This document shows positions 4,844-50,414 of a stretch of DNA of 52,117 bases, one piece after another. Made by a program: the position numbers and the translations under genes. The notes under the pieces were generated by a model. It worked only from the letters and a program-made list of their open reading frames with translations, was not told the origin of the DNA and did not search any database. The DNA comes from an uncultured Bacillota bacterium (GTDB taxonomy: Bacteria > Bacillota_I > Bacilli_A > Izemoplasmatales > UBA1188), in contig CALCVH010000063.1 in assembly GCA_937907585.1 (NCBI GenBank), positions 1-52,117 on the forward strand, read 5' to 3'. The first letter of the stretch is position 1; every line of letters starts with the position of its first letter.

Positions 4844-4853
4844 GAGAACAACA

Positions 4854-24205: not shown

Positions 24206-25561
24206 ATGGTGAATGTTAAAGAGTCGATAATTGAAGCAATAAAAATGCCTCATGAAGTTGAATGGATTGAATTTAAATCAAATTATTGGAATCCAAAAGA
24301 AATAGGAGAATATATTTCTGCATTGAGCAATTCTGCAGCAATACATGGAAAGTCATATGGATTATTGATTTGGGGTGTTGATAATGAAAATCATCAGATT
24401 GTTGGAACAACTATAGATTTTCAACAAGATGTTAATAACGAACCATTCCAACATTATTTAGCAAGACAATTGAATCCTAGCATTAACTTTGCTTTTTATG
24501 AAGAATATATTGGCACTAAAAGAGTTGTTTTACTTAGCATTCCGTCTGCAAAAAGTGTTCCTACCGAATTTAATAAAGAACGTTTTATTAGAATTGGATC
24601 AAGCAAGGAAAACTTAAGAAAATATCCACAAAGAGAAGCTAATCTATGGAATATTTTATCTAATGGCCTTCCTTCAATAACAAATGTAGATTCAGAAAGA
24701 CAGGATTTAACATTTGAAAAGTTGTTTCTATATTATGCTGCTAAAAATATAAAAATAGATTTAAATACTTTTAAAAAGAATTTAAATTTAATAAATGAAA
24801 AAACTGGAAATTATAATCTATTAGCTTTGCTATTAGCAGATGATAATGCAATAAGTTGTAGGATTTCTATGTTTAATGGTGAAAAAAAGTATCAAGGTTT
24901 AAAATCTGTTAAAGAGTTTGGAAATACTTGTATATTATACGCATTAGACGGAATTGCAAACTATGGAAAAGATGTTTTAAATTCAGTAATCTCAAGTGAG
25001 GAGAATAGAACACTAGAAAGAATAGATACATATTTATTTGACAACGATGCATTTAGAGAAGCTATTATCAATTCTTTTGTTCATAATAATTGGCAAAGAT
25101 TAAATTCTCCACAGATATCAGTTTTTTCAGATAGAATTGAAATATTATCTCATGGTATCTTAGGGCCTGATCAAACATTGGAAGGATTTTATAATGGTGA
25201 AAGCAAGCCTGTTAATCCAGCTCTTGCGCATATTTTTATGCAGCTAGGCATTTCAGATCGTTCAGGAAAAGGTGTTCCTACAATAGTAGAAAAATATGGG
25301 AGAGACTGCTTTACTTTTGGAGATGATTCAATAACTATAACTATACCATTTAAAATAGCAAATAAAATTGCAAGAAATAAAAAAGATAGAATTATAGATG
25401 AAATGAGAATCGATTCAAACGTTACTGCGCAAGATTTATCAAAAAAACTAAATATCAGTATTCCAATGATAAATAAACTAATCAGAGAGCTAAAAGCTTC
25501 AAATAAACTGGAAAGAATAGGATCAAATAAAACTGGAAGCTGGAAAATACTATATAAGTAA
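24206..25561 (+). CDS. AlbA_2/Schlafen-type divergent-AAA domain protein with C-terminal HTH (often annotated as a RecG-like putative DNA-binding or ATP-binding protein)
   Basis: N-terminal 'EVEWIEFKSNYWNPKEIGEYISALSNSAAIHGKSYGLLIWGVD' is AlbA_2-like. The C-terminus 'TAQDLSKKLNISIPMINKLIRELKASNKLERIG' is a winged HTH. Confidence 0.75.
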   Translation: MVNVKESIIEAIKMPHEVEWIEFKSNYWNPKEIGEYISALSNSAAIHGKSYGLLIWGVDNENHQIVGTTIDFQQDVNNEPFQHYLARQLNPSINFAFYEEYIGTKRVVLLSIPSAKSVPTEFNKERFIRIGSSKENLRKYPQREANLWNILSNGLPSITNVDSERQDLTFEKLFLYYAAKNIKIDLNTFKKNLNLINEKTGNYNLLALLLADDNAISCRISMFNGEKKYQGLKSVKEFGNTCILYALDGIANYGKDVLNSVISSEENRTLERIDTYLFDNDAFREAIINSFVHNNWQRLNSPQISVFSDRIEILSHGILGPDQTLEGFYNGESKPVNPALAHIFMQLGISDRSGKGVPTIVEKYGRDCFTFGDDSITITIPFKIANKIARNKKDRIIDEMRIDSNVTAQDLSKKLNISIPMINKLIRELKASNKLERIGSNKTGSWKILYK

Positions 25562-25714: not shown

Positions 25715-26332
25715 ATGCCCCTCCCTAAGCGTGGCAGTTGTAAAAATAGGGCTGAAAAGCCCTTTTCTTTTTGGAGGTTTTATGCTAAACAAATAGTCGC
25801 AGCTCGTTTTGGAAGAAGGCGAGGCGATAGAATGCAGTATATCGATGGACTTATAGATTTATTACAACATCTCGATAATGAGAATATTGTAGATCCTGTT
25901 GTAATACATACTGATCAAGGAAGTGTCTATTCATCTTTAGCTTATAATGAACTGATAAAAGATAGAAATATTAACCGTTCCATGTCTAGACCCGGAAAGC
26001 CAACCGACAATCCTGTTAATGAATCACTAAATGGATGGATAAAGGAAGAATTATTTATTGATTTTAAAATGTCTGAGTCGGAGAATCCAGAAGAATTAGT
26101 AAAAAGATATATTAAGTACTATAATTCAATGAGACCTAGTTGGGCACTTAATTATGATATTCCAGATTTGTATTATCAAAAATACATGAATAATGAAATC
26201 GAGCATAAAAATACTTTTGAGAATAGAGTACTTACAGAAGTGCCTAAATATGTCTTAAGAAAAATGTCTACTTCTATAAATGAAAATGAAACAAAAAATT
26301 CAAATATGAATACTTTTAAAAATGATAATTAA
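25715..26332 (+). pseudogene. 5'-truncated IS3-family transposase (DDE/rve core, C-terminal third only)
   Basis: 'VVIHTDQGSVYSS', 'SMSRPGKPTDNPVNESLNGWIKEEL' and 'YIKYYNSMRP' match the IS3 OrfB C-terminal region. Family similarity starts near 25830. The first ~40 codons of the ORF are unrelated sequence. No orfA or catalytic N-terminal part. Confidence 0.8.
25749..25772 (+). terminator. terminator-like hairpin inside a GC-richer orphan segment
   Basis: GGGCT (25749-25753) / AGCCC (25758-25762) followed by TTTTCTTTTT. Confidence 0.4.
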
Positions 26333-26505: not shown

Positions 26506-27852
26506 ATGTTTAAAAGAAAAGTTTATGAAGAAATGTTAAAGTGGAAAAACACTAAAGATCATAAACCATTAATAATTAAAGGTTTAAGGCAAATAGGAAA
26601 GACAACAATAGCAAGAGAATTTGGTAAAAATAATTATAAATCAGTTATTCTTCTAGATTTTAGAAAAGAAATTAGTTTATATGCAATATTTGATGGTGAT
26701 TTTGATATTGACCAAATTACTTTTGAAATTACACTGAGAAAGAAAGATGCAAAATTAATACCAAATGATACGCTCTTCATTTTTGATGAGATTCAAGATT
26801 GTCCAAACGCAAGATCATCGTTAAAATATTTTTATGAAGATGGTAGATACGATGTTATAGCCACAGGTTCTTTAATGGGAATAAAGAATTTTAGAGTTAC
26901 TAAGAAGCCATCTAGAGGTATTCCTGTTGGGTTCGAAGATTATTTAGATATGAAACCAATGGACTTTGTGGAATTCTTATGGGCAAATAATATTAGTGAA
27001 AACATAATAAATATGATAAAAATAAATATAAATGATTTGAAACCTATTCAACCTTTTGTTCATAATGAAATGTTAAATCTGTTTAATAAATATATATGTA
27101 TTGGTGGAATGCCAGAAGTTGTTGCCAAGTACATTGAAACAAATGATTTTAATGAAGTAAGAAGAGTTCAAAGAAGAATAATAACTGATTATGAAGCTGA
27201 TTTTGGAACACATTTAAATGATAATAATGAAATAATTGTTGATGAATATGCTAAAGCAAAAATACTAGAAATATTTCATTCTATTCCAAGGCAATTAGCA
27301 AAAGAAAATCAAAAATTTCAATATTCGACAATATCCAAGAATGCTAAAGGCAGAGATTATAAAACTTCCATTGAGTGGTTAGAAGATTATGGTTTAATAT
27401 CACTATGTCGAAATTTGTCTACACCCGAAATACCATTTGATGAATTTGCTATAGATGATATTTTTAAAATATATGTCAATGATACTGGTTTATATATTGC
27501 AATGTTAGATGATGATATCCCATCAGATATAATTAATGGAAAAATGGGAAATGGAAAAGGCGCTATTTATGAAAATATAGTTGCTGATGCATTTTCAAAA
27601 AATAATTATAAATTATATTATTTTCATAAAGATTCTGGCCTTGAAATAGATTTTATACAAAAGTTTAAATCTAAGCCATGCCTTATTGAAGTTAAAGCAA
27701 AAACTGGACGAACAAAATCAGCATCGGTTGTATTAAATAATTATGAAAAATATCACGTTGACCAATTGATAAAATTTAGTTCAAATAATATTGGATATAA
27801 TGATGGTTTATATACTTTTCCATATTATGCTGTTTCATTTTTAATGAAATAA
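26506..27852 (+). CDS. AAA+ ATPase with DUF4143 domain (paralog of 21045-22400)
   Basis: Walker A 'GLRQIGKT', Walker B 'LFIFDEIQ', C-terminal 'LEIDFIQK...CLIEVKAKTG'. Confidence 0.85.
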   Translation: MFKRKVYEEMLKWKNTKDHKPLIIKGLRQIGKTTIAREFGKNNYKSVILLDFRKEISLYAIFDGDFDIDQITFEITLRKKDAKLIPNDTLFIFDEIQDCPNARSSLKYFYEDGRYDVIATGSLMGIKNFRVTKKPSRGIPVGFEDYLDMKPMDFVEFLWANNISENIINMIKININDLKPIQPFVHNEMLNLFNKYICIGGMPEVVAKYIETNDFNEVRRVQRRIITDYEADFGTHLNDNNEIIVDEYAKAKILEIFHSIPRQLAKENQKFQYSTISKNAKGRDYKTSIEWLEDYGLISLCRNLSTPEIPFDEFAIDDIFKIYVNDTGLYIAMLDDDIPSDIINGKMGNGKGAIYENIVADAFSKNNYKLYYFHKDSGLEIDFIQKFKSKPCLIEVKAKTGRTKSASVVLNNYEKYHVDQLIKFSSNNIGYNDGLYTFPYYAVSFLMK

Positions 27853-30630: not shown

Positions 30631-31485
30631 ATGAATGTCAGCAAGGAAGTTCAATTATTGTGTAACGTGTTAAATCTAACAGAAACAGAACTAGGTTACG
30701 AACTAGGTGTTACATATGAAACTGTGAATAATTGGAAACATAATCGAAAAACTATAGATGAATCAAATCTAGAAAAATTATATTCCTATGCATATAGTAA
30801 AGGCATTAAATTCAATAATATTTATGAACAATTGCTTAAAGAAAATAATATTAGTGATAAAAATGTTGTATTATTTCATGGAGCAAAAAAAGCTTTTAGT
30901 ATGCCTATTGATATAGATAAATATTCAAAATCAAATAATGATTTTGGAAAAGGATTCTATTTAGGTGAAAGATATGAACAGGCAGCAAATTATATTTCAA
31001 ATATTAATAATGATAAAGTTTATGCATTTAAACTTAATACTAAAAACTTAAAGTTCTTTAAATTTAATGTCGATAATAGTTGGATGATAGCGATAACGTA
31101 TTATAGAGGCTGGCTTAAGGATTATGAGGATCATAAAGTTGTTAGAAAGGTATTAGATTCTATTAAAGATGCGGATGTGATTATCGCTCCAATCGCTGAT
31201 AATAGAATGTTTGATATAATAAATGAATTCATTGAAAACTTTATAACTGATGAACAATGTAGACACGCTTTAGCAGCGACAAACTTAGGTTATCAGTATG
31301 TATTAAAAACAAAAAAGGCAGTAGATTCTATCACATATTTACAAGAGATGTTTGTTTGTAAAAAAGAAAAGGAACATTGGATCGATGAGAGACTTTCTTT
31401 AGCGAAAACAGGACTTCAAAAAGTAAAAATGGCGAGGATAGAATATAAAAATAAAGGTCGTTATATCGAGGAAATACTAAAATGA
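30631..31485 (+). CDS. HTH (XRE-like) + DUF3990 domain protein
   Basis: N-terminal 'LTETELGYELGVTYETVNNWKHNRK'. DUF3990-like blocks 'VVLFHGAKK', 'DFGKGFYLGERYEQAANY' and 'ADVIIAPIADNRMF'. Confidence 0.75.
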   Translation: MNVSKEVQLLCNVLNLTETELGYELGVTYETVNNWKHNRKTIDESNLEKLYSYAYSKGIKFNNIYEQLLKENNISDKNVVLFHGAKKAFSMPIDIDKYSKSNNDFGKGFYLGERYEQAANYISNINNDKVYAFKLNTKNLKFFKFNVDNSWMIAITYYRGWLKDYEDHKVVRKVLDSIKDADVIIAPIADNRMFDIINEFIENFITDEQCRHALAATNLGYQYVLKTKKAVDSITYLQEMFVCKKEKEHWIDERLSLAKTGLQKVKMARIEYKNKGRYIEEILK

Positions 31486-32288
31486 AACCATTAGATTCAT
31501 TTGAAATAAAATTATGTCAGATGCAGGGAAGGATCTTTGAAGAATCCGTAAAAAGAACAAATTATAGTTCTCCTATTTTTATTAGGAGATTTATGTTTTC
31601 AAAAATTGCTAAATCATTTGATGATAAAAGCTATTTATTTCAATCTATTACTCCTGATGAAACATATGATTTATTAGATGAGGAATTTGGAAAGAGCGAA
31701 TATGGAAAAACAAAATACTCAGAAGATCAAATGTTTTGGATAGGTTATATTTATAGATGCATCTCTATTAAATACAATTTAGCTAGTAAAGTTGTATATA
31801 ACTTATTTAACGCAAGAGAAATAGTGAAATATTACAATATTGGTCATACTTTTGATATCGTTCAAGCAGCTGAAAGAATGATGGAAAATATTAATTATGA
31901 ATTTAATATTGAAGAGAAAAGCCTTAATTATATGCGAGAGTTAATGATTCTTGAAGGCGATGCGTTTTTGATAGGTGAAGAAATAACAGTATGTATCACT
32001 ATTCCATTTGGACATAAACATAATGGAATAACATATGAGTTAAACTATGGTTATATAAAAGAATTTAAATCTAGAAATGGAAATATATTATATGCGTATG
32101 TCTTAGGTGTAAAAGAACCAGTTGAAACTTTTAAAGGCAAAATAATAGCTATAATTCATAGACTCAATGATTGCGAAGACAAACTAATAGTCTCTGATAT
32201 AAATAAAGATTATACAAATAAAGAAATAGAAGATATGGTTAAATTCCAAGAAGTAAATTTCAAACATAAAATAATAAGACAAAATTAG
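31482..32288 (+). CDS. DUF3791-like domain fused to a small inorganic-pyrophosphatase-like domain
   Basis: ATGA overlap with the upstream gene. 'MFWIGYIYRCISIKYNLASKVVYNLFNAREIVKYYNIGHTFDIV' is DUF3791-like. The C-terminal 'NYGYIKEF..NGNILYAYVLGVKEPVETFKGKIIAIIHRLNDCEDKLIVS' is PPase-fold-like. Confidence 0.6.
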   Translation: MKPLDSFEIKLCQMQGRIFEESVKRTNYSSPIFIRRFMFSKIAKSFDDKSYLFQSITPDETYDLLDEEFGKSEYGKTKYSEDQMFWIGYIYRCISIKYNLASKVVYNLFNAREIVKYYNIGHTFDIVQAAERMMENINYEFNIEEKSLNYMRELMILEGDAFLIGEEITVCITIPFGHKHNGITYELNYGYIKEFKSRNGNILYAYVLGVKEPVETFKGKIIAIIHRLNDCEDKLIVSDINKDYTNKEIEDMVKFQEVNFKHKIIRQN

Positions 32289-32369
32289 AACACATCAATC
32301 TATTAAAAATCTAATTAAATTTACTTGGTGACTTACGCTAAAATTATAATAAAAAGAAAGGAAAAATAT

Positions 32370-33617
32370 ATGGCTAATTCACATTATGTTCCAAGGTTAA
32401 CATTAAGAAAATTTGCTGATAAACTTTGCCTTTTTAATGTTCGCACAGGTGAATATAAAGAAAATATAAAAATAGATGATTCTTTTTCAGTACAAAATTT
32501 TTATTCTAAAGAGGTCGAAGATAAATTAAACAAAAGGATTGAATCACAATTTGGAAATCTATTTTCAAATAAATTGTTAAATGCAGAAAACACGATAGAA
32601 TTAAATAGGAATGAACTTAATTTAATCAAAAAATTTTTGTTAATATCTGTTATTAGAAGCATGGGAAATGAAGAGTTCATGCAAATTGAAAGGAAATTTT
32701 ATGATAATCTAAAAGAATACAGTCTTAAATTTGCAAGAGAAAAAGGGTTGACTGAAGAAGAAATTAATTCACACCCTATAGAGCCACCATTTAAAGAAAA
32801 AATAATCAATGGTGAAACGCCTTTTGATTATTGGATGAGGACATTAAATGTTATTTTAGATACCGATGGAACTCCTCAGGCAATACTTGATCATCCATAT
32901 AAGACATATCCAGCACATAGGTGGGCTGAAGTTATAAATAACGGCTATGTTGCGTTCTGGGATTCTGAATTTATTCATGATGAATATGTTATAACTGATA
33001 TAGGAATGACGTCAGAAAATGAAAAAGGATGGAATGGAACGACTGTTCATAATGTGAAAAAGACTAACTTTTTATTAGATATCCTTAAAAAGGAAAAAGA
33101 CGAATCTTATAGAATGGAGATAGTTAAATATATGCATATGCATTATAATTTTAGTGAAAACTTTATGATGTTTCCAATATCTTCAAAGCGAATGATAGTG
33201 GAAATTGATCCGTTCTATAAGTTTAGATTTTTTGCAAGAAACCGTTATAATATGCCTGATTTAGATCATTTAACTAACCTTTCAAATGAAACCCTATTTT
33301 ATCCAAATACAAATAAATTTATTTTGCCTCAAGAGGGATTAATGCCAAAATATCACCCTGATGATTTATATATTTATGAAATTAAAAAGCTAACTAGTAA
33401 GGAAACAAGGTATTGTAATGAATTGTTTTTGGATAGAATAAACACTTGGGTTGGATTTAGTTCCTTGAATAAGGTTGTCGGTAGCATTTTTGCATATAAA
33501 AGAGTTAATTCATATCCGTTTGTTCCAAGGGTTGATTATACTGAATTGTATAAAATAATAAATGAACGATATGGCGCAAGCATTGATATAAAATCTATAG
33601 GAGGTTTTAGACGATGA
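32370..33617 (+). CDS. DUF4238 domain protein
   Basis: Start trimmed to ATG 32370 (AAAGGAAA RBS). N-terminal 'SHYVPRLTLRKFAD' plus 'NFYSKEVEDKLNKRIESQF' match the DUF4238 hallmark. Confidence 0.8.
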   Translation: MANSHYVPRLTLRKFADKLCLFNVRTGEYKENIKIDDSFSVQNFYSKEVEDKLNKRIESQFGNLFSNKLLNAENTIELNRNELNLIKKFLLISVIRSMGNEEFMQIERKFYDNLKEYSLKFAREKGLTEEEINSHPIEPPFKEKIINGETPFDYWMRTLNVILDTDGTPQAILDHPYKTYPAHRWAEVINNGYVAFWDSEFIHDEYVITDIGMTSENEKGWNGTTVHNVKKTNFLLDILKKEKDESYRMEIVKYMHMHYNFSENFMMFPISSKRMIVEIDPFYKFRFFARNRYNMPDLDHLTNLSNETLFYPNTNKFILPQEGLMPKYHPDDLYIYEIKKLTSKETRYCNELFLDRINTWVGFSSLNKVVGSIFAYKRVNSYPFVPRVDYTELYKIINERYGASIDIKSIGGFRR

Positions 33618-34423
33618 AATTATTTAATGATTCACTATCAACGAGATTTAATACTCTTGAAAGAAACATAAAATCAAAGAGCAATTCTTTTTATGATTCC
33701 TATCTCGATCTTTTAGAAGCTACAATTAAGTATTTTTTAGATGAAAATAACATAACATATGATGATTCTAGAACATGCGGTTTTCTTGTTAAAGAAGAAT
33801 CAATTAAGAATTTCTTGATGAATGTACTTAAGTTAGATGATTATACATATAACAAACTTCCCGATTATATCAAGAAATGCAATGACCATAAACACAAGAA
33901 AGAGAAAACGCTAGGAATAGATAGTGTTATCAACTATTTAAAAGTTTATTATGATTTGATTAATTATTATATTGTCTTTATAAAAGGGATAAAGATTGAA
34001 TATAACGTAGAATATTTCACTTCTATATTTGGCGAAACTGAAAGATTAAATAATGAATATAGAGAAGAGGTTTTAAGATTAAAAGATGAGCTAAAGGAAT
34101 CTTACGATAATAATAAGTTATCTAAACAGGATATAGAACAATATAAATCTTTATTATCTATCAAAGATATTGAACTATTAAATCTTGATGAACAGAATCA
34201 AAAATTACAAGCACAGATCAGCATTTTAAAAGATATCAAATTAAATTCTATGGAAGAAAAACTAAATAAGACTATTGATATGCTTAACAACATGCAAGAT
34301 TATTTAGTAGAAAATAGAATCATTGCTAGAAGAACATCAAAATTAATTGATGGTAGAGATATAACTGATGAAGAACTAGCAGCTGAAAGATTAAAGTTGG
34401 AGGCAATTAAAAATGGAAAATAA
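33614..34423 (+). CDS. hypothetical protein, helical N-domain + long coiled coil
   Basis: ATGA start/stop overlap with the DUF4238 gene. GGAGG RBS. Heptad-rich stretch 'LRLKDELKESYDNNKLSKQDIEQYKSLLSIKDIELLNLDEQNQKLQAQISILKDIKLNSMEEKLNKTIDMLNNMQDYL'. Confidence 0.7.
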   Translation: MKLFNDSLSTRFNTLERNIKSKSNSFYDSYLDLLEATIKYFLDENNITYDDSRTCGFLVKEESIKNFLMNVLKLDDYTYNKLPDYIKKCNDHKHKKEKTLGIDSVINYLKVYYDLINYYIVFIKGIKIEYNVEYFTSIFGETERLNNEYREEVLRLKDELKESYDNNKLSKQDIEQYKSLLSIKDIELLNLDEQNQKLQAQISILKDIKLNSMEEKLNKTIDMLNNMQDYLVENRIIARRTSKLIDGRDITDEELAAERLKLEAIKNGK

Positions 34424-35225
34424 ACCTCAAAATGTATTTGAAAAATTAGATTCTATTGAAGCGTCACAATCAGTAACAAATGCTCAAAACGGACAAATAC
34501 TGGATTTGTTAAATAAAATTAGTAGCCAACAAACAGTAGTACAAAAAAATGAAACCGGTCCAAAAACACAGTCTCCACTATCAAATCAATTTTTATTAAG
34601 AAGTTTTATTAGGAAATCAAAAAAGGAATATATTTGGTTTGGAACAATCGATGAATTTAATAAATCCAAAACGATTGTAAATATATTATGCGTTTCATTA
34701 ATAATAGTTGGAATTCTATCTACTATATTTACTAGTATTGCATTTAAAATGTATTCAACATTTTCTTTATTTGAAAACATCTGGTTAATATTTGCATGCA
34801 TTTTATTCTCGCATTCTGTTTACGCAAAAAAGAGGATGCTCGACACAGATTTAAGAGATCACTCTAATAGCGTCTTCGTTCAAGATGATGATGGTGTGTG
34901 GAATGATACTGGTAAAGAAAAGAAGAGATTTAAGTGGTTTAGAAGAATATCGTATATTGCAGTTGTATGTAATATAATTGTTATTTGGATTGAATCTAAA
35001 GGAGCAATAGCGATTTTAGCTACAATATTTGAACTAGCTTTTGCAGGAATCACAATTGGTATATTGTTTACATATATTAATCTATTCTGTATGTACAACA
35101 GCTTCATTTTATTTACTGGAAGAAATGCATCAAATACCGAAACTGTAACTCTTATATTTGATGTGATAGGTAAGAAGCTTGCACCTTTAGAAGAATATAA
35201 AGAAAAAATGAAAGATTATTTATAA
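34413..35225 (+). CDS. hypothetical integral membrane protein (4-5 TM) with soluble N-terminal ~95 aa
   Basis: 11-nt overlap with the upstream gene. GGAGG RBS. TM segments 'IVNILCVSLIIVGILSTIFTSIAF', 'IWLIFACILFSHSVYA', 'ISYIAVVCNIIVIWI' and 'AIAILATIFELAFAGITIGILFTYINLFCMY'. Confidence 0.7.
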   Translation: MENKPQNVFEKLDSIEASQSVTNAQNGQILDLLNKISSQQTVVQKNETGPKTQSPLSNQFLLRSFIRKSKKEYIWFGTIDEFNKSKTIVNILCVSLIIVGILSTIFTSIAFKMYSTFSLFENIWLIFACILFSHSVYAKKRMLDTDLRDHSNSVFVQDDDGVWNDTGKEKKRFKWFRRISYIAVVCNIIVIWIESKGAIAILATIFELAFAGITIGILFTYINLFCMYNSFILFTGRNASNTETVTLIFDVIGKKLAPLEEYKEKMKDYL

Positions 35226-35255
35226 ATATATTGAATATTTTGTTACAAGAACAGG

Positions 35256-35286
35256 GCTGAATTCGTGGAAATTCGGCTCTTTTTTT
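35256..35286 (+). terminator. intrinsic terminator of the DUF4238 operon
   Basis: GCTGAATT (35256-35263) / AATTCGGC (35270-35277), an 8-bp stem with one G-U pair, followed by TCTTTTTTT. Confidence 0.75.
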
Positions 35287-35294
35287 GATATAAT
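35286..35294 (+). promoter_or_regulatory. extended -10 element (TGATATAAT) for the small HTH gene
   Basis: TGnTATAAT match at 35286-35294, about 60 nt upstream of ATG 35356. Confidence 0.5.
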
Positions 35295-35355
35295 ATAAGC
35301 GTGTCAGAAGAATACTCTGGAGCATTGGTAGAAAAATACCTTCGCAAAGGAGGTA

Positions 35356-35580
35356 TTGCATATGACACAAGTAGATGAAAGACTAGCTAAGGTTGGTCAA
35401 AATCTTAAAAAATTTATTTCTGAATCTAAGTATAAAACACAGGTTTCTTTCGCTTTGGACGGAATGGGTCAAGACCCTTCAGTAATCCGTAGATGGATTA
35501 AACATGGTGTTAATAAATTAGATACTTTAATGTATATAGCTGAGGTTTTGGAAATAGATTTTATGGAACTTCTTAAGTAG
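35356..35580 (+). CDS. small HTH (XRE-like) DNA-binding protein
   Basis: 74 aa. AAAGGAGG RBS. The helix-turn-helix-like stretch 'YKTQVSFALDGMGQDPSVIRRWIKHG' and the 'LMYIAEVLEIDFMELL' tail are typical of XRE proteins. Confidence 0.7.
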   Translation: MHMTQVDERLAKVGQNLKKFISESKYKTQVSFALDGMGQDPSVIRRWIKHGVNKLDTLMYIAEVLEIDFMELLK

Positions 35581-35794: not shown

Positions 35795-35838
35795 AGTCGT
35801 TGCTTGATAAACTATAAGTGAAATTGGAGGACAAGACA

Positions 35839-36264
35839 ATGAAAAATGAAGTTAAAAAATATTTTATGGTAATCGCTAAGTGTGGACATGTAGGGAGAAA
35901 AAGTTACGTTCCGGTAAAATTTGCAGTAGTAGCTGAATCTGGTAAAAAAGCTGCTAAAAAGGTAAGACAATTTCCAAGAGTTAAGCACAATCATAAGGAT
36001 GCGATTCTAGATGTTATGTGTATTACACTAGAAGAGTTCTTAGAGATTAAGGAAGTTAATAATAACGATCCATATTTAAAATGCCACTCTAAACATGAAC
36101 AAAATCTAATTACTAATCTAACTGAAAGAATGGTAGAAGATCTACATAATGTAAAACAAACATTAGATAAGCAAATTAGGAAAGATAGAGTTGCTTATAA
36201 ATTAAAAAAATTCAAATTATTAGAAAAATCTTCAATGATGGAGGATTATTGCTATGCGTATTAA
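35839..36264 (+). CDS. hypothetical basic protein with Cys/His motifs
   Basis: Start trimmed to ATG 35839 (GGAGG RBS). 'AKCGHVG' and 'RVKHNHKDAI' motifs. Overlaps the nrdG start by 11 nt. Confidence 0.6.
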   Translation: MKNEVKKYFMVIAKCGHVGRKSYVPVKFAVVAESGKKAAKKVRQFPRVKHNHKDAILDVMCITLEEFLEIKEVNNNDPYLKCHSKHEQNLITNLTERMVEDLHNVKQTLDKQIRKDRVAYKLKKFKLLEKSSMMEDYCYAY

Positions 36265-36706
36265 TTCAATTAGATATAACAATTCTGTTGTCGATGGTCC
36301 TGGTATTAGAACTGTACTCTTTATGCAAGGCTGTGATATCAATTGTAAAGGATGCCAAAATAGATCGACGTGGGACACCAACAAAGGAAAAGAAGTAAGT
36401 ATTGATAATTTAATTAATGAATTAAAACAAAAAGTATTTAATAAGAAAATTACTATTTCTGGAGGCGAGCCATTGGTTCAAAAAGATGAATTAGTGAAAC
36501 TTATTGATAAACTTGCTGAAGAAGGCTTTGATATAGCTTTATATACAGGGCACACAAGAGATGAAGTCCCATCTGAAATTATTTCTAAAGTTAAATATTT
36601 AAAGACTGGTAATTTTATTCAAGAATTAAAAACAACTATTAAACCTTTTGTAGGTTCGGAAAATCAAATCTTTGAGGAGGTATCTAAAGATGAAACAACT
36701 AAATAA
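36254..36706 (+). CDS. nrdG: anaerobic ribonucleoside-triphosphate reductase activating protein (radical SAM)
   Basis: 'DGPGIRTVLFMQGCDINCKGCQN' contains the CxxxCxxC cluster and is the NrdG signature. 150 aa. Confidence 0.9.
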   Translation: MRINSIRYNNSVVDGPGIRTVLFMQGCDINCKGCQNRSTWDTNKGKEVSIDNLINELKQKVFNKKITISGGEPLVQKDELVKLIDKLAEEGFDIALYTGHTRDEVPSEIISKVKYLKTGNFIQELKTTIKPFVGSENQIFEEVSKDETTK

Positions 36707-38384
36707 TGATAATGCTGCTAATAGAACTAGCTATGTTGGATACGTATATAACGTAGGTGAAAAAGAATATAAAAATAAAATATTAAATAGTCTTCCAAAA
36801 GAATGGGCAGATTTACATAGAACAGGTGCAATTCATATTCATGACTTGGATGCATATGATTTAACTTATAACTGCTTAACATTCGATATCATCAATAAGT
36901 TCCCATATGATGAATTCAAGATGTTTAGTGAACAAGGTAAAATTATCCATTTGTTTGAATTTATCAAAGATTTATTTACTAAACTAGGTAATGAACAATC
37001 TGGTGGTATGACATTTGCCAATTTCGATAATGAAATAGCTGAAATCTTATCTACATTTGAAATTGATTATTCAAAGTATAAAGATTTAATTACTGATTCA
37101 ATTGCTGAATTAATATTATGGTGTAATGGTAATCATTCAAGAATGGGCCAAACTAGTTATTACGTAACTTTAAATATTGGTTTAGCTAAAAATGAATGTG
37201 CTAGATTCATTGCTCATGAAGTAATTGATAGATTCTTGAAATTAGGTGATATGGTATTTAAACCGAATATCGTATTTAAAGTAGTTGATGGAATTAATAA
37301 TAAACCTAGTGATCCAAATTATGATCTATTAAAATTAGCTTTATCTTGTACAGCTAAAAAGATGATACCTACATATCTTCTTTGTGATTGCAAAGGTGAT
37401 AAAGAAACTAATCCTGAAAGATTATCGGTAATGGGATGTAGAACTAGAGTGGTTTCTGATCTTTATGGTGAAGATGGTGCTATGGGTAGAGGTAATATCA
37501 CAAATATTTCTATTAATCTTCCTAGACTTGCCTTAGAGATTGATAAGAACAATAAAGAATTATCAATTGATGAGAAATTCGAACTTCTGAAATCAAAATG
37601 GGATGAAGTAGCTAGAGCTACAAAAGATATCTTACTTGATAGATATCATAAAGTATGCAAAAGAACTCCTGATGATTTTCCAACAAATAGTAGCTATCAT
37701 CTATGGTGCGAAGATTTCAAAGGAGATTTAGAAGAAGTATTCAAGCATGGAACATTATCACTAGGATTCATTGGATTAAGTGAAGCTATAGAAGTTATTA
37801 CTGGTTCAAAGTATTATTCAAGCATGGATAATTATATTATGACTTTAGGCTTCGTAAAACATATGAGAGATTATTGCGATTTCTTAAAGAATGAATACAA
37901 GCTTAATTTCTCATTACTTGCAACATCAGGCGAATTAATTAGTGGTAGATTCATTGAATTTGATAAAGATCTATATAAACCAGATGTTGATATTTTTACA
38001 AAAGGTTATTATACAAATTCATTCCATATAGATGTAGACTCAAGACTTCCTGGATATAAGAAGATCCAACTTGAAGGATTATTCCATGAAATATGTAATG
38101 GTGGATGTATTACATATATCGAACTTGGTGAAGCTCCACTAGGTAATGAAGAATCTCTAGAGGAATATATCAATATTGCAGCCGAAGCGGGAGTTCATTA
38201 TCTAGGATTTAATTTTCCTAAAGATGTATGTAATGAATGTGGAACTACGGGAGTATTTGATTATTGTCCTAAATGTAAATCACATAACATTACAAGAATC
38301 AGAAGAGTATCTGGATATCTTGAAATTCTAGATGGATTTACCAAAGGAAAGAAAGCTGAAGAAAAGAATAGGAAGAAAAATTAA
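36690..38384 (+). CDS. nrdD: anaerobic (class III) ribonucleoside-triphosphate reductase, short form without ATP-cone
   Basis: Start trimmed to ATG 36690 (GAGGAGG RBS). 'GAIHIHDLD' block. C-terminal Zn ribbon 'CNECG...CPKCKS'. Glycyl-radical motif 'RRVSGYL'. Confidence 0.9.
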   Translation: MKQLNNDNAANRTSYVGYVYNVGEKEYKNKILNSLPKEWADLHRTGAIHIHDLDAYDLTYNCLTFDIINKFPYDEFKMFSEQGKIIHLFEFIKDLFTKLGNEQSGGMTFANFDNEIAEILSTFEIDYSKYKDLITDSIAELILWCNGNHSRMGQTSYYVTLNIGLAKNECARFIAHEVIDRFLKLGDMVFKPNIVFKVVDGINNKPSDPNYDLLKLALSCTAKKMIPTYLLCDCKGDKETNPERLSVMGCRTRVVSDLYGEDGAMGRGNITNISINLPRLALEIDKNNKELSIDEKFELLKSKWDEVARATKDILLDRYHKVCKRTPDDFPTNSSYHLWCEDFKGDLEEVFKHGTLSLGFIGLSEAIEVITGSKYYSSMDNYIMTLGFVKHMRDYCDFLKNEYKLNFSLLATSGELISGRFIEFDKDLYKPDVDIFTKGYYTNSFHIDVDSRLPGYKKIQLEGLFHEICNGGCITYIELGEAPLGNEESLEEYINIAAEAGVHYLGFNFPKDVCNECGTTGVFDYCPKCKSHNITRIRRVSGYLEILDGFTKGKKAEEKNRKKN

Positions 38385-38385
38385 G

Positions 38386-38952
38386 ATGATATTTTACATT
38401 TCAGATACACATTTTAGAGATCAAGCCATTTTTGATAAATGTAAGAGGCCATTTAAATCATTAGATGAAATGGAATCAACAGTTATCAGCAAATGGAATA
38501 ATAAAGTTAATGATGAAGACGTTGTTTATGTACTTGGTGATATCGTTAAAGATGATGACGCATCAGCAATTCAAATCTTTAAAAAACTAAAAGGTCATAA
38601 GCATTTAATCGTTGGTAATCATGACCATTTAATCTTAGAAGAGATTAGAAAATCAAATATATTTGAATCAGTAAAATTCATCGATTTAATTATGGATAAA
38701 AATAGAAAAGTTTGTATTTGTCATTATCCACTAATGGATTGGATGGAATTTAATAGAGAAGGAATCTTGGTTTATGGACATATTCATAATAAGACACCTA
38801 AGAATGGATATGCTTATAAAATGATGAAAGATTATTATGCAAATCTACCTGCATATAATTGCGGAGTAGATGTATGTGAATTTGAGCCAAGAACACTAGA
38901 TGAACTTATTCATTTAAAGGAGGTAAACAAGGATGAACCATATATCAATTGA
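38386..38952 (+). CDS. calcineurin-like metallophosphoesterase
   Basis: Start trimmed to ATG 38386, 1 nt after the nrdD stop. Motifs 'ISDTHF', 'LGDIV', 'GNHD' and 'GHIH'. Confidence 0.85.
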   Translation: MIFYISDTHFRDQAIFDKCKRPFKSLDEMESTVISKWNNKVNDEDVVYVLGDIVKDDDASAIQIFKKLKGHKHLIVGNHDHLILEEIRKSNIFESVKFIDLIMDKNRKVCICHYPLMDWMEFNREGILVYGHIHNKTPKNGYAYKMMKDYYANLPAYNCGVDVCEFEPRTLDELIHLKEVNKDEPYIN

Positions 38953-39511
38953 GGGTATGGATGGAGTTGGAAAATCAACTACATGTGAATTGCTTGCTGA
39001 AAAACTAGGATATATATTTGTTGAAAAACCATTACACTATCTTCTTGATGATAGTGATGAAGAAATAAAGCAATATCAAAAAGTTGCTAAAAGGGTTAAT
39101 GAAAATCCTAATAGAAACTTTACAGCTTGGTATTATGGTTTAAATAATATTTATCTTTACGAAAAATTCAAAGATCAAAATATTGTTACTGATCGTCATA
39201 TTGTTTCAAATTATTGTTGGAGTGGAACAACATATAATAAAGATATCTATAATCTAATCTTAAAGAAGATTGGAAAACCTAAACTTACTGTAATTTTATA
39301 TGCAAAACCTGAAGCAATATTAGCTAGATTAAAGAAAAGAGATATTAATGATTCTGATATTTCTAAAGTTAGCAAAAGCGAAAAAGCATATGAGAGAATG
39401 ATATATTTTTGTGAAACTAAAAAACTTGAATATATTGTTATCGATACAACGAATAAAGATGTTGAAACAGTAGTTGATGAGATTTTAAAAAGAATTGAGG
39501 TACTTAAATAG
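38933..39511 (+). CDS. thymidylate/deoxynucleoside-monophosphate kinase-like P-loop kinase
   Basis: 'ISIEGMDGVGKST' P-loop and the 'VTDRHIVSNYCW' block resemble the dTMP kinase / dNK fold. AAGGAGG RBS. Confidence 0.7.
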   Translation: MNHISIEGMDGVGKSTTCELLAEKLGYIFVEKPLHYLLDDSDEEIKQYQKVAKRVNENPNRNFTAWYYGLNNIYLYEKFKDQNIVTDRHIVSNYCWSGTTYNKDIYNLILKKIGKPKLTVILYAKPEAILARLKKRDINDSDISKVSKSEKAYERMIYFCETKKLEYIVIDTTNKDVETVVDEILKRIEVLK

Positions 39512-39512
39512 G

Positions 39513-41966
39513 ATGAATGTAGATAATTTAAGACTTTCAAAAGATATGAAGTACGAAGCTCTATACTGGGCTTTAGGTTTTGAAGAGTTAAGTAAGGGAA
39601 TATTTACTAAATTCTACAATAAAAGCTTCAAAGTGGAAATTAATGCTGATAAGCAACTGGTTGACTTTTCAAATAAGATTTCAATCGTTAATGGCGAAGC
39701 ATTGCTTTTAACAACACATAAGAGTTTTGTTATCTTAGAATGTATTGATAAATTATTGACTATGGGATATAAGCCTAGTGAGATAATTGTTGATCTAGAT
39801 AATGAATACGACATTTACTGCAATGATTTATATATCAAATGTTATGAATGGAATCATATTGAAGAGGATAGAGTTGAATTTAAAAAAGATGTATTCAAAT
39901 CCGTTTCTTATGAATCAAGATTAATTAGCGGAGTAATAGAAAGAAGAACATCAATTAAAACTTCTGATGGATTAATTTATAATCATGGAATCTTTGAAAA
40001 TGAGTCAAGATTAGTTGATTATAAATTATATAATTCTAATGATATTATCTCAGACGATTTCATTATTAAAGCTGGCGTAGCAATTAAATACACAGGAAAT
40101 AAAAACATAATTATAGTTCCTGATGGGGTCAATGAATTAGCACCATGCTTATTTTGGGATAATCAGGTAATTGAAGAAGTAATTCTTCCAGATACTTTAA
40201 TTAATATCTCTGGTGATACATTCTATAATTCAACTAACCTTAGAAAAATTAATATCCCAAAGAATGTAAAGTTCATGGGAAATAACCCATTTGCTGGATG
40301 CCCTAATATAAAAGTTAATAATGAATCACCATATTTCAATTTAGTAGATGGCGTTTTATACAATAAAGATTTTACAAGACTTATATATTATCCAATTTCT
40401 AAAAAAGAAGATAAATACGAGATAAAAGAAGGATGCAGAATCTTAGGAAAACATTCATTTTACCTTTGCGACAATCTTAAAGAAGTAGTTATTCCATCGT
40501 CAATAATAAAATTAGAGAATAATCCATTTTCAGGATGCACGAAGATTAATATAGTTAATAAATCTGAGTATTATCACATTGATGATTCGGTTATTTATGA
40601 TAAGGATTATTCATCAGTAATCGGTTGCCTTAATTCTATTGACACTGATTGTCTAGTTTTAAAAGATGTTAAGAGAATATGTAGAAATTCATTCTGGAAC
40701 TGTAAAGGAATTAAAAAGATAGTTTTTCCGGAAACCCTTGAATCAATCGGATATAATCCGTTTGTTAGTTGCTCTAATATTGAATTTGAATCTCATAGCA
40801 GATATTATGTAGTTTACAACAATGCACTATATACAGCTGATAAATCAAAATTAGTTTGTTATCCAGCTAAATACGCAGTTAATGAGGTCTATCTTCCTGA
40901 TGAAACAATAATACTTGAGCGTGGAGCTTTCTCAGGATGCGATAAAATGACTGCCATCCATCTGCATAATGTTTCAATTATCTCTAAGACTTGCTTCACA
41001 AATTGTAATTCATTAGAAAAAGTATGCTGCTCAGATTTAGTTACTTATATTGGCGAATGGGCATTCGCGCATTGCACTAATTTAAAGGAATTATCAGTTT
41101 ATAAAGACTGCTTTATAGATAATAATGCAACATTGAACAGCCCTGTTAAAATCAACAAGAGAGATGAACTATCTAATTATGTCATAGAGTCAGACAACTT
41201 ATACACATTAAAATCAATGACTAATTTATATAAGAAAAAGATTAAGTCGATTTTAATTGATCCACCTTATAATTCTCATATTGACCACATTGGATATAAA
41301 GATACATTTGATTGTGATTACGAGAAGTTTATGGTGGATAGAATCAAACTTGCTAGCGAACTATTGACTATCGACGGTTTTTTAGTTATCAATATTGATG
41401 AAGGTGAAGTAAAACATCTTTCTTCCTTGTCAGTTTTAAAAGATTTATTCTATAAAATTAAAATTTATAAGTGGGAAAAACTTCATCCCTATTTTGATAA
41501 GAATAGGAGCGTTAACCCAAATAAAAAGGTTGTAAAATACGAATTCATCATCGTTTGTTATAAGTCTAAGGAATCTAAATTAAACTTAATAAAACAACCA
41601 TATTTGGATGGTGAAGTTTTAAAGGAAAAGGAATCTAAAGTTCCATCAACATTTAAATGCTTTGGTACTAATTCATCAGCAAAAGATGAAATAGCTGAAC
41701 TATTTGGCGATAGAGCTTACTTCCAAACTCCTAAGCCTTTAAAACTAATGAAGGAACTTGTGAGAGCTACTTCAAATAAAGACTCTATTATTTTGGACTT
41801 CTTTGCAGGATCAGGCACAGTTGGCCATGCTGTAGTTGATTTGAATAAAGAAGATGGTGGTAGTAGAAAGTATATTCTTATCTCAAATAACGAATCAAAC
41901 ATTTGCAGAAATGTTACACTTAAAAGAATGCAAATGGTCGATGATAAGTTCTACTTCATAGACTAG
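39513..41966 (+). CDS. three-part fusion: unknown N-domain + BspA-type leucine-rich repeats + beta-class (Type III Mod-like) N6/N4 DNA methyltransferase
   Basis: N-domain approx 39513-40061. About ten LRR_5-like units approx 40062-41114 (e.g. 'ILPDTLINISGDTFYNSTNLRKINIP', 'VIPSSIIKLENNPFSGC'). 'DPPY' at 41259-41270. 'FFAGSGT' at 41799-41819. 'EDGGSRKYILI' tail. Confidence 0.8.
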   Translation: MNVDNLRLSKDMKYEALYWALGFEELSKGIFTKFYNKSFKVEINADKQLVDFSNKISIVNGEALLLTTHKSFVILECIDKLLTMGYKPSEIIVDLDNEYDIYCNDLYIKCYEWNHIEEDRVEFKKDVFKSVSYESRLISGVIERRTSIKTSDGLIYNHGIFENESRLVDYKLYNSNDIISDDFIIKAGVAIKYTGNKNIIIVPDGVNELAPCLFWDNQVIEEVILPDTLINISGDTFYNSTNLRKINIPKNVKFMGNNPFAGCPNIKVNNESPYFNLVDGVLYNKDFTRLIYYPISKKEDKYEIKEGCRILGKHSFYLCDNLKEVVIPSSIIKLENNPFSGCTKINIVNKSEYYHIDDSVIYDKDYSSVIGCLNSIDTDCLVLKDVKRICRNSFWNCKGIKKIVFPETLESIGYNPFVSCSNIEFESHSRYYVVYNNALYTADKSKLVCYPAKYAVNEVYLPDETIILERGAFSGCDKMTAIHLHNVSIISKTCFTNCNSLEKVCCSDLVTYIGEWAFAHCTNLKELSVYKDCFIDNNATLNSPVKINKRDELSNYVIESDNLYTLKSMTNLYKKKIKSILIDPPYNSHIDHIGYKDTFDCDYEKFMVDRIKLASELLTIDGFLVINIDEGEVKHLSSLSVLKDLFYKIKIYKWEKLHPYFDKNRSVNPNKKVVKYEFIIVCYKSKESKLNLIKQPYLDGEVLKEKESKVPSTFKCFGTNSSAKDEIAELFGDRAYFQTPKPLKLMKELVRATSNKDSIILDFFAGSGTVGHAVVDLNKEDGGSRKYILISNNESNICRNVTLKRMQMVDDKFYFID

Positions 41967-46575: not shown

Positions 46576-46749
46576 TGCGGTTTCGTGGTGGAACGCTCAA
46601 AAAACCTCAAATGATTAAGAAAATAATACAGTTTCTAATTAAAAATAGTGTTTTTGATGAGAAAACATTTACTTATTATTCAATTAATAATTGATTTTTA
46701 TCCCCAAAAGTTATATAATTGGTGCGTAAATAACAAGGATGGTGAGAAA

Positions 46750-50060: not shown

Positions 50061-50079
50061 ATTTTAGGAGATGATAGAT

Positions 50080-50412: not shown

Positions 50413-50414
50413 TT

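Follow-up and report, generated by a model that had tools for sequence, protein, structure and literature searches.

The genes at positions 32,370 to 35,225 on the forward strand of the window, the whole 52,117-nucleotide stretch of DNA analysed here, form a real operon that joins a DUF4238 protein to what appears to be a single membrane protein encoded as two chains. We tentatively interpret the locus as a composite anti-phage operon of two modules, for which we infer a membrane-acting function in phage exclusion or abortive infection.

ORF calling returned three translationally coupled genes on the forward strand, as initially annotated: gene 1 (32370–33617, with its ATG at 32370; 415 aa), gene 2 (33614–34423; 269 aa) and gene 3 (34413–35225; 270 aa). 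Read directly from the sequence, genes 1 and 2 meet in an ATGA overlap at 33614–33617 and genes 2 and 3 share 11 nt at 34413–34423. Dozens of divergent loci repeat this gene order with overlaps of the same lengths (−4, −8 or −11 nt), so that the arrangement goes beyond chance. The strong ribosome-binding site that had been attributed to each gene is present for genes 2 and 3, where a GGAGG at 33600–33604, within the 3′ end of gene 1, and another at 34399–34403, within the 3′ end of gene 2, each lie 9 nt 5′ of the ATG, but the site of gene 1 is weaker (AAAGGA, 32357–32362, 7 nt 5′ of the ATG). Downstream, the expected good terminator was recovered as an intrinsic terminator at 35253–35287, formed by a stem-loop at 35253–35280 with an 11-bp stem and a 6-nt loop, followed by a T-run. 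On the upstream side, where a TATAAT hexamer at 32345–32350 is a candidate −10 element, the promoter scan did not return this hexamer and the terminator scan detected no terminator between the trio and the preceding gene pair, so that the insulation ascribed to the operon is only putative there. At this upstream end, comparison with related loci shows DNA similarity starting only at 32348–32376.

Gene 1 matches Pfam DUF4238 (PF14022) with a score of 58.5 bits (cut-off 27; E 9.4e-16), over profile positions 2–278 of 281, so that the family assignment first made from its HYVP N-terminus is confirmed above the gathering threshold. The N-terminal motif S4-H5-Y6-V7-P8 fits the pattern H-Y-[VI]-[PS], which is present in all DUF4238 subtypes aligned, and H5, V7 and P8 are invariant in alignment A3. 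Hydropathy analysis detected no transmembrane (TM) segment, and the protein is taken to be cytosolic. Its AF2 model (pTM 0.85) had no fold match in the PDB by Foldseek, and sequence and profile searches of the PDB returned nothing. Against PADLOC-DB v2.0.0, whichever DUF4238 model that version contains, gene 1 matched no family at E ≤ 1, nor did two other DUF4238 subtypes, and a literature search by the accession PF14022 matched only Plasmodium gene identifiers. The family had been described as lacking an assigned function, which holds for its mechanism, not yet established, but not for its role, as DUF4238 is a named single-gene anti-phage system that alone protects E. coli from phage T7 (PMC9122126), and TIR-DUF4238 proteins likewise defend (PMC11350192). 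Gene 1 shares PF14022 and the HYVP motif with this system (Rst_DUF4238 in DefenseFinder; Rousset et al. 2022, from the P2 prophage hotspot), and like it sits in a defence island or mobile-element hotspot and has close relatives that stand alone. It differs in that it overlaps the next gene by 4 nt in a three-gene operon, in that, both in the window and in about 33 of 58 related genomes, DUF4238 is translationally coupled to a split membrane protein, and in its hosts, which are gut Firmicutes as opposed to Enterobacteria.

Genes 2 and 3 are, as far as sequence comparison can tell, the halves of one membrane protein, cytosolic and membrane-embedded, respectively. The two are fused in one chain in about 45 cluster representatives and in 5 genome loci (L045, L051, L059 and L061 are among the loci with fused genes), and an HMM of gene 3 recognises the C-terminal region in about 45 relatives of gene 2, with E values down to 1e-75. 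These fusions replace the earlier idea of gene 2 as a separate coiled-coil adaptor, although the helical domain and coiled coil ascribed to it are borne out: its AF2 model is all-helical (pLDDT 87.7), with a head at residues ~1–140 and a coiled-coil stalk at ~141–266 that includes one long helix (191–245). The head carries an N-x-H-K-H motif (N90-D-H92-K93-H94, codons 33881–33895) in which, across alignments A1 and A2, N90, K93 and H94 never vary and H92 reaches at least 90% conservation, and R11, T14, S23, S25, F26, D28, E35 and G56 are near-invariant as well. Gene 3 begins with a conserved N-terminal helix (MENKPQNVFEKLD...), followed by a variable linker and four TM helices arranged as two hairpins, which agrees with the soluble head and 4–5 TM helices annotated at first, except that the head measures about 85 rather than 95 aa. 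TM hairpin 1 (residues ~87–137, 34671–34823) is the best-conserved stretch of the subfamily, with T104, T107, S108, Y114, S115, E121, N122 and W124 each at least 90% conserved, and TM hairpin 2, delimited by hydropathy (residues ~179–228, 34947–35096), contains the conserved N187, T204 and E207. Such conserved polar residues within the TM helices argue for a functional TM domain rather than a simple anchor. The external loops span only ~5–10 residues, which places the bulk of the protein on the cytoplasmic side; gene 3 has a hydrophilic N-terminus, which in the fused chains directly continues the cytosolic gene 2. This topology fits a channel or effector and would also be compatible with a scaffold, and contact between the two chains is most probably made by the stalk of gene 2 and the conserved helix at the start of gene 3.

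We define the gene 2/3 family by an N-x-H-K-H head followed by a 4-TM domain that opens with a VFExLD helix, located either in the same chain as the gene 2-type head or in the next overlapping gene. The window genes belong to it by their motifs, by the fusions and by their matches to the g2 and g3 HMMs (E 2e-105 and 1e-137). Homologs number 513 for gene 2 (as clusters at 90% identity; 184 representatives at 50% clustering) and 118 for gene 3, whose position is filled by three size classes, with cassettes of 270, 230 and 423 aa and relatives of the membrane protein spanning 230–424 aa. Searches of Pfam, NCBIfam, PHROGs and PADLOC with genes 2 and 3, the fused forms and the gene 3 variants gave nothing significant, sequence and profile searches of the PDB with gene 2 gave only coiled-coil noise, and Foldseek of its model against the PDB and BFVD gave nothing significant. 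The only compact local Foldseek matches of gene 2, 2hsb and 2jpu, had a TMt of ~0.55 and non-significant E values of 5.5–8.0. By its PDB title, 2hsb is a HEPN domain protein. A HEPN assignment was considered for the gene 2 head and judged unlikely: there is no Rx4-6H motif, with no arginine conserved at HEPN spacing to N90-x-H92-K93-H94 in alignments A1 and A2, and no significant fold match. The Pfam scan returned no HEPN family. A programmed frameshift joining genes 2 and 3 was likewise rejected, given that gene 3 has its own GGAGG and ATG and that the split form is kept in hundreds of sequences of 269–271 aa.

In the composite reading, module A would be gene 1, a cytosolic member of a family that suffices for defence in E. 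coli, and module B would be the two-chain membrane protein of genes 2 and 3, with a helical head, a coiled-coil stalk and a 4-TM domain that bears conserved polar and charged residues within the membrane. Infection would trigger the cytosolic head, either directly or through DUF4238, and the TM domain would then open or perturb the membrane, such that the phage is excluded or the infection aborted. DUF4238 would add a second, separable activity from the same message, and strains could diversify their specificity by exchanging gene 1 and the gene 3 body while gene 2 stays constant. What speaks against this reading is that no fold or family match points to any biochemistry.

The gene 2/3 pair is strongly, but not invariably, linked to DUF4238. 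In about 33 of 58 species-level genomes the gene immediately 5′ of gene 2 encodes DUF4238, in most cases overlapping it by 4–11 nt, and the subtypes in this slot include some only 27–34% identical to gene 1; co-occurrence beyond close relatives, which the initial annotation had set out as a check, extends down to identities of ~30% (gene 1) and ~40% (gene 2). In departure from its first description, the trio is not obligate, since both modules are frequently found apart: of 78 metagenome loci with DUF4238, 34 have gene 2 next to it and 44 lack gene 2, and DUF4238 is absent from about 20 of the 58 gene 2 loci. This frequent separation counts against the composite reading and favors an explanation that we nevertheless consider unlikely, namely that two independent defence units share a hotspot, with DUF4238 acting alone as in P2-like prophages and a self-sufficient gene 2/3 pair merely co-transcribed with it where a variable island ends. 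Consistent with independence, the gene 2/3 pair elsewhere stands alone or is tightly preceded by Fic/PDC-S04, a Schlafen-type helicase, PLD-SNF2, an ADP-ribosylglycohydrolase or a small HTH gene; the temperate gut phage NatCom_17901 carries the pair without DUF4238, adjoining a serine recombinase; and intact DUF4238 widely persists once genes 2 and 3 are lost. DUF4238 copies with and without gene 2 were also indistinguishable by sequence in the alignment, leaving no signature of the association in DUF4238, and for this reason a physical DUF4238–gene 2 partnership is only a candidate. The C-terminal tail of DUF4238, considered as a docking signature for gene 2, yielded none in the subtype alignment. 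Against independence, DUF4238 fills the slot at more than half of gene 2 loci, far above what a minor family would reach in a random hotspot; the coupling (ATGA, −8 or −11 nt) is kept across DUF4238 subtypes ~30% identical; and one locus with the order 2-3-1 (L026) still holds all three genes in one operon.

The locus comparisons also show gene 2 to be the constant hub of the operon, around which genes 1 and 3 are exchanged as cassettes whose breakpoints coincide with the gene borders. DNA similarity between loci breaks at 33614–33617, at 34451 and at 35196–35230, and the 90%-identity cluster of gene 2 has 509 members compared with 1 each for genes 1 and 3. At L005–L008, a DUF4238 subtype 31–32% identical replaces gene 1 while gene 2 is 92–97% identical. 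Gene 3 is truncated or split in L008, L016, L017 and L073, and only a remnant of gene 2 is present in L063 and L065, a frequent decay as expected of dispensable accessory genes. The gene 2/3 family shows three textbook signatures of immunity genes: Rosetta-stone fusions, cassette swaps at gene borders and frequent decay.

Of two equally open role assignments, only one makes DUF4238 the sensor and gene 3 the effector. Taken as a full account of the locus, an arrangement with the roles reversed, in which the gene 2/3 pair is a membrane sensor or docking platform (like Kiwa KwaA or a superinfection-exclusion protein) and the upstream cytosolic enzyme an interchangeable effector, strikes us as unlikely. 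It would fit the other upstream partners, which resemble enzymatic effectors and not sensors, the sufficiency of DUF4238 for defence elsewhere, and the site next to a phage integrase, as for prophage genes that exclude other phages; the body of gene 3 is moreover the fastest-diversifying, cassette-exchanged part, as would be expected of a phage-facing specificity determinant. However, the short external loops leave gene 3 little exposed to an incoming phage, its best-conserved part is a polar TM hairpin, more reminiscent of a channel than of a surface for recognition, and fused or split gene 2/3 genes often stand alone behind an upstream gap of >200 nt, which suggests that no effector partner is needed.

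More doubtful still is that the gene 2/3 pair serves as a membrane hub that accepts interchangeable cytosolic defence enzymes and couples them to a membrane event such as phage DNA entry. The partners of such a hub would be DUF4238, Fic/PDC-S04, the Schlafen-type helicase, PLD-SNF2 and the ADP-ribosylglycohydrolase. Were this true, the hub would be a general adaptor turning stand-alone defence proteins into membrane-gated systems, exchange of the membrane-half cassette would re-tune specificity, and a first handle on DUF4238 activation would be gained.

The defence-island setting proposed for the trio is found both in the window, with PDC-S01, a PDC-M13/M42-like pair, SoFic and a methyltransferase, and at the related locus L147, with restriction-modification, GmrSD and SNF2 genes. 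Among the neighbours listed initially, Fic, AlbA_2, the methyltransferase and a toxin-antitoxin-like pair (RelB-Doc) were recovered, but DUF262 was found in no window ORF of at least 90 aa. An intact prophage was rejected for the window region, which has no structural genes in the 17 kb downstream or the 32 kb upstream; L147 runs straight into housekeeping genes, which also counts against it. The pair is overwhelmingly chromosomal, with 1 match in 50,697 phage records, and gene 2 was found neither in the IMG/VR scan nor in the plasmid search.

Contrary to its first description, the operon is not self-contained on its right side; an HTH gene and an nrdGD block are linked to it there, in a layout that recurs in a phage. 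The small HTH protein (35362–35580, forward strand, with its own GGAGG at 35349–35353), which may be a regulator, adjoins gene 2/3 across the family, lying ~0.1–2.3 kb downstream of gene 2 in either orientation in about 45 of 58 loci; in NatCom_17901, too, the gene 2/3 pair fills the space between the recombinase and the HTH gene. The promoter scan placed a promoter-like site at 35266–35294. Further downstream, a ‘KCGHVG’ protein (35818–36264, forward strand, start codon uncertain), with no Pfam or PADLOC match, overlaps the start of NrdG at 36254 and opens a conserved nrdGD block 3′ of the module; it is present in about 38 of 58 loci and in NatCom_17901, and occurs with NrdG/NrdD in about 35–38 of 58. 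Both nrdGD and the HTH gene usually lie 3′ of the gene 2/3 pair, an arrangement that holds even where gene 2 is only ~40% identical, and a defence role does not explain so tight a linkage. DNA similarity between loci spans gene 2 through the whole block, and the order is the same in the phage, all of which would suit a gene 2/3 pair that has no part in defence but belongs to a phage-derived or mobile block (HTH-KCGHVG-NrdG-NrdD-phosphoesterase-TMPK-MTase), with DUF4238 as an unrelated insertion; we regard this as decidedly improbable, because at seven loci (L016, L038, L040, L048, L051, L056 and L061) no nrd block accompanies gene 2/3 within 7 kb, gene 3 undergoes cassette exchange and frequent pseudogenisation, which would be unusual for a housekeeping or regulatory partner, and the upstream partners are overwhelmingly defence genes. 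Within such a block, gene 2/3 could be, for example, a regulator or membrane tether of nucleotide metabolism or element maintenance.

The composite anti-phage operon that we tentatively favor has counterparts among known systems, although for the trio as a whole PADLOC and Pfam yielded no already named multi-gene system, as had been the impression from the outset. RexA and RexB of phage lambda are a soluble protein of ~270–280 aa and a 4-TM membrane protein that are encoded near lysogeny functions and putatively act at the membrane. The gene 2/3 pair likewise combines a soluble protein with a 4-TM partner, near lysogeny functions in NatCom_17901, and the proposed mechanism would share the RexAB logic without homology, as gene 2 had no significant PDB sequence or fold match and gene 2/3 no match in Pfam, PHROGs or PADLOC. 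It differs from RexAB in its larger membrane protein (230–424 aa) with a cytosolic head, in the fusion of genes 2 and 3 in many lineages and in the usual presence of DUF4238 as a third gene. Kiwa consists of the multi-TM membrane protein KwaA and the cytosolic DUF4868 protein KwaB, and resembles the trio in pairing a multi-TM protein with a cytosolic DUF protein, possibly with a similar logic of membrane sensor and cytosolic effector; however, none of the three proteins matched KwaA or KwaB in PADLOC or Pfam, and the domains, gene number and fused forms differ. The TM effectors (2TM/4TM) of CBASS, Pycsar and retrons share with gene 2/3 the C-terminal multi-TM region, the cytosolic N-terminal domain and the fast-diversifying TM module, but the only match to them was a non-significant one to PADLOC ‘Effector 2TM’ (E 0.052), and no signalling gene, such as a cyclase or reverse transcriptase, is part of the operon. 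Genes for superinfection exclusion, ltp among them, are located in the lysogeny module, and the Ltp/Sie-type proteins of temperate Firmicute phages are membrane-associated and vary between phages (PMC3952083). By analogy, the place of the gene 2/3 pair of NatCom_17901 between recombinase and HTH gene would support an exclusion role. Ltp, however, is an externally tethered lipoprotein, whereas gene 3 has a cytosolic N-terminus and hardly any external loops, and neither its sequence nor the fused forms contain an N-terminal signal peptide or lipobox with an external domain.

DUF4238 is a validated defence family without a known mechanism, and a partner found in over half of the related loci offers a way in. 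The gene 2/3 family is large, confined to rarely cultured gut and rumen Firmicutes, and absent from all family and structure libraries searched; should it prove to be an exclusion or abortive-infection module, it would contribute a type of defence from a poorly sampled part of the microbiome, for which the separability of the modules, their fused forms and the alleles swapped in nature would serve as ready-made controls.

The three genes form an operon on the + strand, comprising gene 1 (32370–33617, ATG start, 415 aa), gene 2 (33614–34423, 269 aa) and gene 3 (34413–35225, 270 aa), and our ORF calls agree with the coordinates in the initial annotation. Both overlaps it reported, an ATGA between genes 1 and 2 and 11 nt between genes 2 and 3, are real in the sequence, as is the downstream intrinsic terminator, which the terminator scan places in a stem-loop at 35253–35280 followed by a T-run. 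The strong ribosome binding sites ascribed to every gene are present for genes 2 and 3 (GGAGG, 9 nt 5′ of the ATG), but gene 1 has a weaker AAAGGA, and the TATAAT hexamer noted upstream does lie at 32345–32350 but is not called by the promoter scan. The terminator scan found none between the preceding gene pair and gene 1, so the claimed insulation is shown only on the downstream side.

Gene 1 clearly belongs to DUF4238 (PF14022; 58.5 bits against a cut-off of 27 in a Pfam profile search) and is a newly added member of a known defence family. One DUF4238 gene from a P2 prophage hotspot confers strong T7 resistance (PMC9122126), TIR-DUF4238 proteins likewise defend (PMC11350192), and defence surveys list ‘DUF4238’ as a system. 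The family, noted earlier for having no assigned biochemical function, does have a recognised role, in anti-phage defence. The AlphaFold model of gene 1 is confident (pTM 0.85), and comparison with the PDB gave no matching fold (best E 0.32, TM ≤ 0.24).

Searches of Pfam, NCBIfam, PHROGs and PADLOC returned no match for gene 2 or gene 3, and the pair constitutes an undescribed family. By hydropathy, gene 3 has the hydrophilic head initially proposed and four TM helices, rather than ‘4–5’, forming two hairpins whose outer turns are very short. The first hairpin is the most conserved stretch within its subfamily, and the helices themselves harbour conserved polar or charged residues (T104, T107, S108, E121, N122, N187, T204 and E207). 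An exhaustive gene 2 search, clustered at 50%, gave 184 representatives; many are 400–530 aa long, and most of these long relatives bear a C-terminal domain of four TM helices. The gene 3 family profile matches ~45 of them full-length, with E down to 1e-75, in two fusion classes, where gene 3 follows either the gene 2 head directly (~405–415 aa) or the head plus stalk (~450–475 aa). Fused genes occur in five genome loci (L045, L051, L058, L059 and L061). In loci without a gene 3 profile match, the gene that overlaps the 3′ end of gene 2 still encodes a multi-TM protein, of ~230, 265 or 415–424 aa, with the same ..VFE.LD.IE.. start helix. This is a Rosetta-stone case, in which genes 2 and 3 are the cytosolic and membrane halves of one unit. 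Two gene 2 paralogs lie in tandem in some loci (L010 6074–7810, L094 and L054 4850–8458). Separately, some gene 2 relatives of 420–500 aa (P0364, P0382, P0425, P0450 and P0484) have a C-terminal extension without a TM segment or Pfam match, and the head may also be fused to non-membrane domains.

The gene 2 model is confident and all-helical (pLDDT 87.7), with a ~140-residue bundle followed by a stalk containing a single 55-residue helix, and neither the PDB nor BFVD yielded a significant structural neighbour for it. Compact local matches were only small four-helix bundles, one of them a HEPN-domain protein, at non-significant scores (TMt ~0.55, E 5.5–8), and gene 2 lacks the Rx4-6H motif of HEPN proteins. 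Alignments revealed an invariant N90-x-H-K93-H94 motif in the head together with a conserved segment, R..T.ERNIK..SNSFYDSYLDLLE. These point to an active or binding site, so gene 2 is no passive adaptor, in contrast to the coiled-coil adaptor first proposed. Tentatively, we favor a membrane-acting exclusion or abortive-infection module, in which the gene 2 head, in the cytosol, would be set off by infection and the gene 3 TM domain would perturb the membrane; DUF4238 would supply a co-expressed, separable second activity. The proposed logic resembles that of lambda RexAB, which has no homology to the trio.

The proposed check for co-occurrence of the trio in other genomes found it in part of the loci; the two modules are also found apart. 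Among 58 species-level genomes anchored on gene 2, every one a gut or rumen MAG and the majority Bacilli/RF39-like or Clostridia, a DUF4238 gene lies directly 5′ of gene 2 in ~33, nearly always with a 4–11 nt overlap, and these upstream subtypes include ones of 430–516 aa only 27–34% identical to gene 1. One locus (L026) keeps all three genes in the order 2-3-1. Conversely, in 80 metagenome loci anchored on gene 1, 78 of them informative, gene 2 lies directly 3′ of DUF4238 in 34 and not in 44; one lineage among the latter keeps a 40-aa gene 2 remnant and others are plain stand-alone DUF4238 genes. No sequence feature was found that distinguishes DUF4238 copies linked to gene 2 from those of the same clade that stand alone. 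The association is therefore specific and ancient, yet optional either way; that the modules are two independent neighbors sharing a hotspot is a rather unlikely alternative. Where DUF4238 is missing, the gene 2/3 pair stands alone behind a >200-nt upstream gap in some loci, and elsewhere lies tightly 3′ of HTH-Fic (PADLOC candidate PDC-S04, E 8e-100), a Schlafen-group-3 helicase, PLD-SNF2, an ADP-ribosylglycohydrolase or a small HTH gene. These alternatives to DUF4238 are genes typical of defence islands. Alternatively, though we consider this unlikely, the roles could be reversed: the gene 2/3 pair would sense at the membrane, and DUF4238 or the other enzymes would act as effectors.

In a 392-aa stand-alone DUF4238 clade (49–50% identical to gene 1; L114, L118, L130 and relatives, L124–L145), a small HTH protein comes next and then a 103–114-aa protein whose ...HPTLDHIRP... 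motif looks HNH-like; this may be a separate DUF4238 partnership. The module, of Firmicute type, also appears in MAGs labelled Bacteroides, Parabacteroides, Muribaculaceae, Paludibacteraceae, Parasutterella and Elusimicrobiaceae (L019, L021, L022, L037, L040 and L049), likely through binning contamination or mobile-element transfer.

Gene 2 is the constant hub amid swapped cassettes, with exchange falling at gene borders. In L005–L008 gene 2 is 92–97% identical to that of the window and gene 1 just 31–32%, and gene 3 is of another size class in L005, L006, L011, L066, L067 and L009 (where the contig ends). DNA similarity to the window begins at 33617 in L005/L006, ends at 34451 (gene 3 codon 13) and resumes from 35196–35202; in L007/L008 it begins at 33614. 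In L009, L011, L066 and L067 it begins at 32348–32376 and ends at 34423–34451, returning at 35222–35230 in all of these but L009. Clustering at 90% identity gives gene 2 a cluster of 509 members and leaves the window's genes 1 and 3 as singletons; gene 2 and gene 3 copies are commonly truncated, split or lost. Such border exchange with frequent decay is the pattern expected for immunity genes, unlike housekeeping genes.

The window comes from the chromosome of a low-GC Firmicute. Its first 21 kb carry sugar utilisation genes, and an island follows at 21–36 kb. This island contains two AAA_14 + DUF4143 ATPase genes, one a PADLOC candidate PDC-S01 (21045–22400, E 1.5e-179) and the other assigned to PDC-S01 from matching Pfam domains alone (26506–27852), flanking an AlbA_2/Schlafen-HATPase_c_4 gene (24206–25561) and an integrase-core (rve) fragment (25715–26332). 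Directly 5′ of the trio lies a DUF3990 gene with a 268-aa partner (30631–32288, 4-nt overlap); the DUF3990 protein is weakly similar to ART-PolyVal ADP-ribosyltransferase, the partner has no Pfam match, and the pair resembles PADLOC candidates PDC-M13/M10/M42. Of the neighbors initially listed, Fic, AlbA_2, methyltransferase and toxin–antitoxin genes are present, but no DUF262 domain was found in any ORF of ≥90 aa in the window. Two further ORFs, of 790 aa (14741–17113) and 194 aa (23442–24026), have no Pfam match at E ≤ 0.001; beside the former is a 1874-aa protein (9057–14681) with five CBM_X2 and two Shr-like haem-binding domains.

Unexpectedly, a conserved gene set follows the gene 2/3 pair even where gene 2 is only ~40% identical. 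A small HTH gene (~45/58 loci) is joined by a protein of no known family, KCGHVG (~38/58), which overlaps the NrdG start and is translationally coupled to it, and then by NrdG, NrdD, a calcineurin-like phosphoesterase, a thymidylate/deoxynucleoside kinase and an (LRR_5-)N6/N4 methyltransferase. The nrdGD block from KCGHVG onwards (35818–41966 in the window; also in L001–L062 and L146) is present in ~35–38 of 58 loci and in phage NatCom_17901, and could be a mobile or phage-derived element or an nrd operon native to the host. In the window its last gene is a single 823-aa ORF (39495–41966) fusing BspA-type LRR_5 repeats to an N6_N4 DNA methyltransferase, an unusual fusion, as the parts are separate genes in L001 and the phage. 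A SoFic-like Fic protein (46648–47796, PADLOC E 7e-43) and a RelB antitoxin with a Fic/Doc toxin (50071–51110) lie to the right of the block, which therefore has defence or TA-type genes on both sides. NatCom_17901 (L146; Ca. Heliusvirales), a temperate phage with normal structural genes, has this gene order too; its gene 2 homolog (39% identical) and 412-aa gene 3 variant adjoin a serine recombinase without DUF4238, in a region usually occupied by temperate phage exclusion genes (PMC3952083). Between its gene 3 variant and HTH gene (4312–5581) are two genes whose 225-aa (...RNQTMHH...) and 205-aa products appear by eye HEPN-like and nucleotidyltransferase-like and could be a toxin–antitoxin pair; the 225-aa protein has no PADLOC match. 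NatCom_17901 was the sole match among 50,697 phage records, IMG/VR and plasmid searches gave none, and on an 838-kb chromosomal contig the nrdGD block passes directly into housekeeping genes; the gene 2/3 module is therefore mainly chromosomal, at a variable defence island edge, and also present in at least one temperate phage. A function outside defence, linked either to this block or to a phage-derived one, is improbable.

The trio is not proven to be an obligate three-component system and is best filed as a DUF4238 defence gene plus a membrane module. This module, whose function we infer throughout, is widespread, shows clean comparative signatures and is directly testable.
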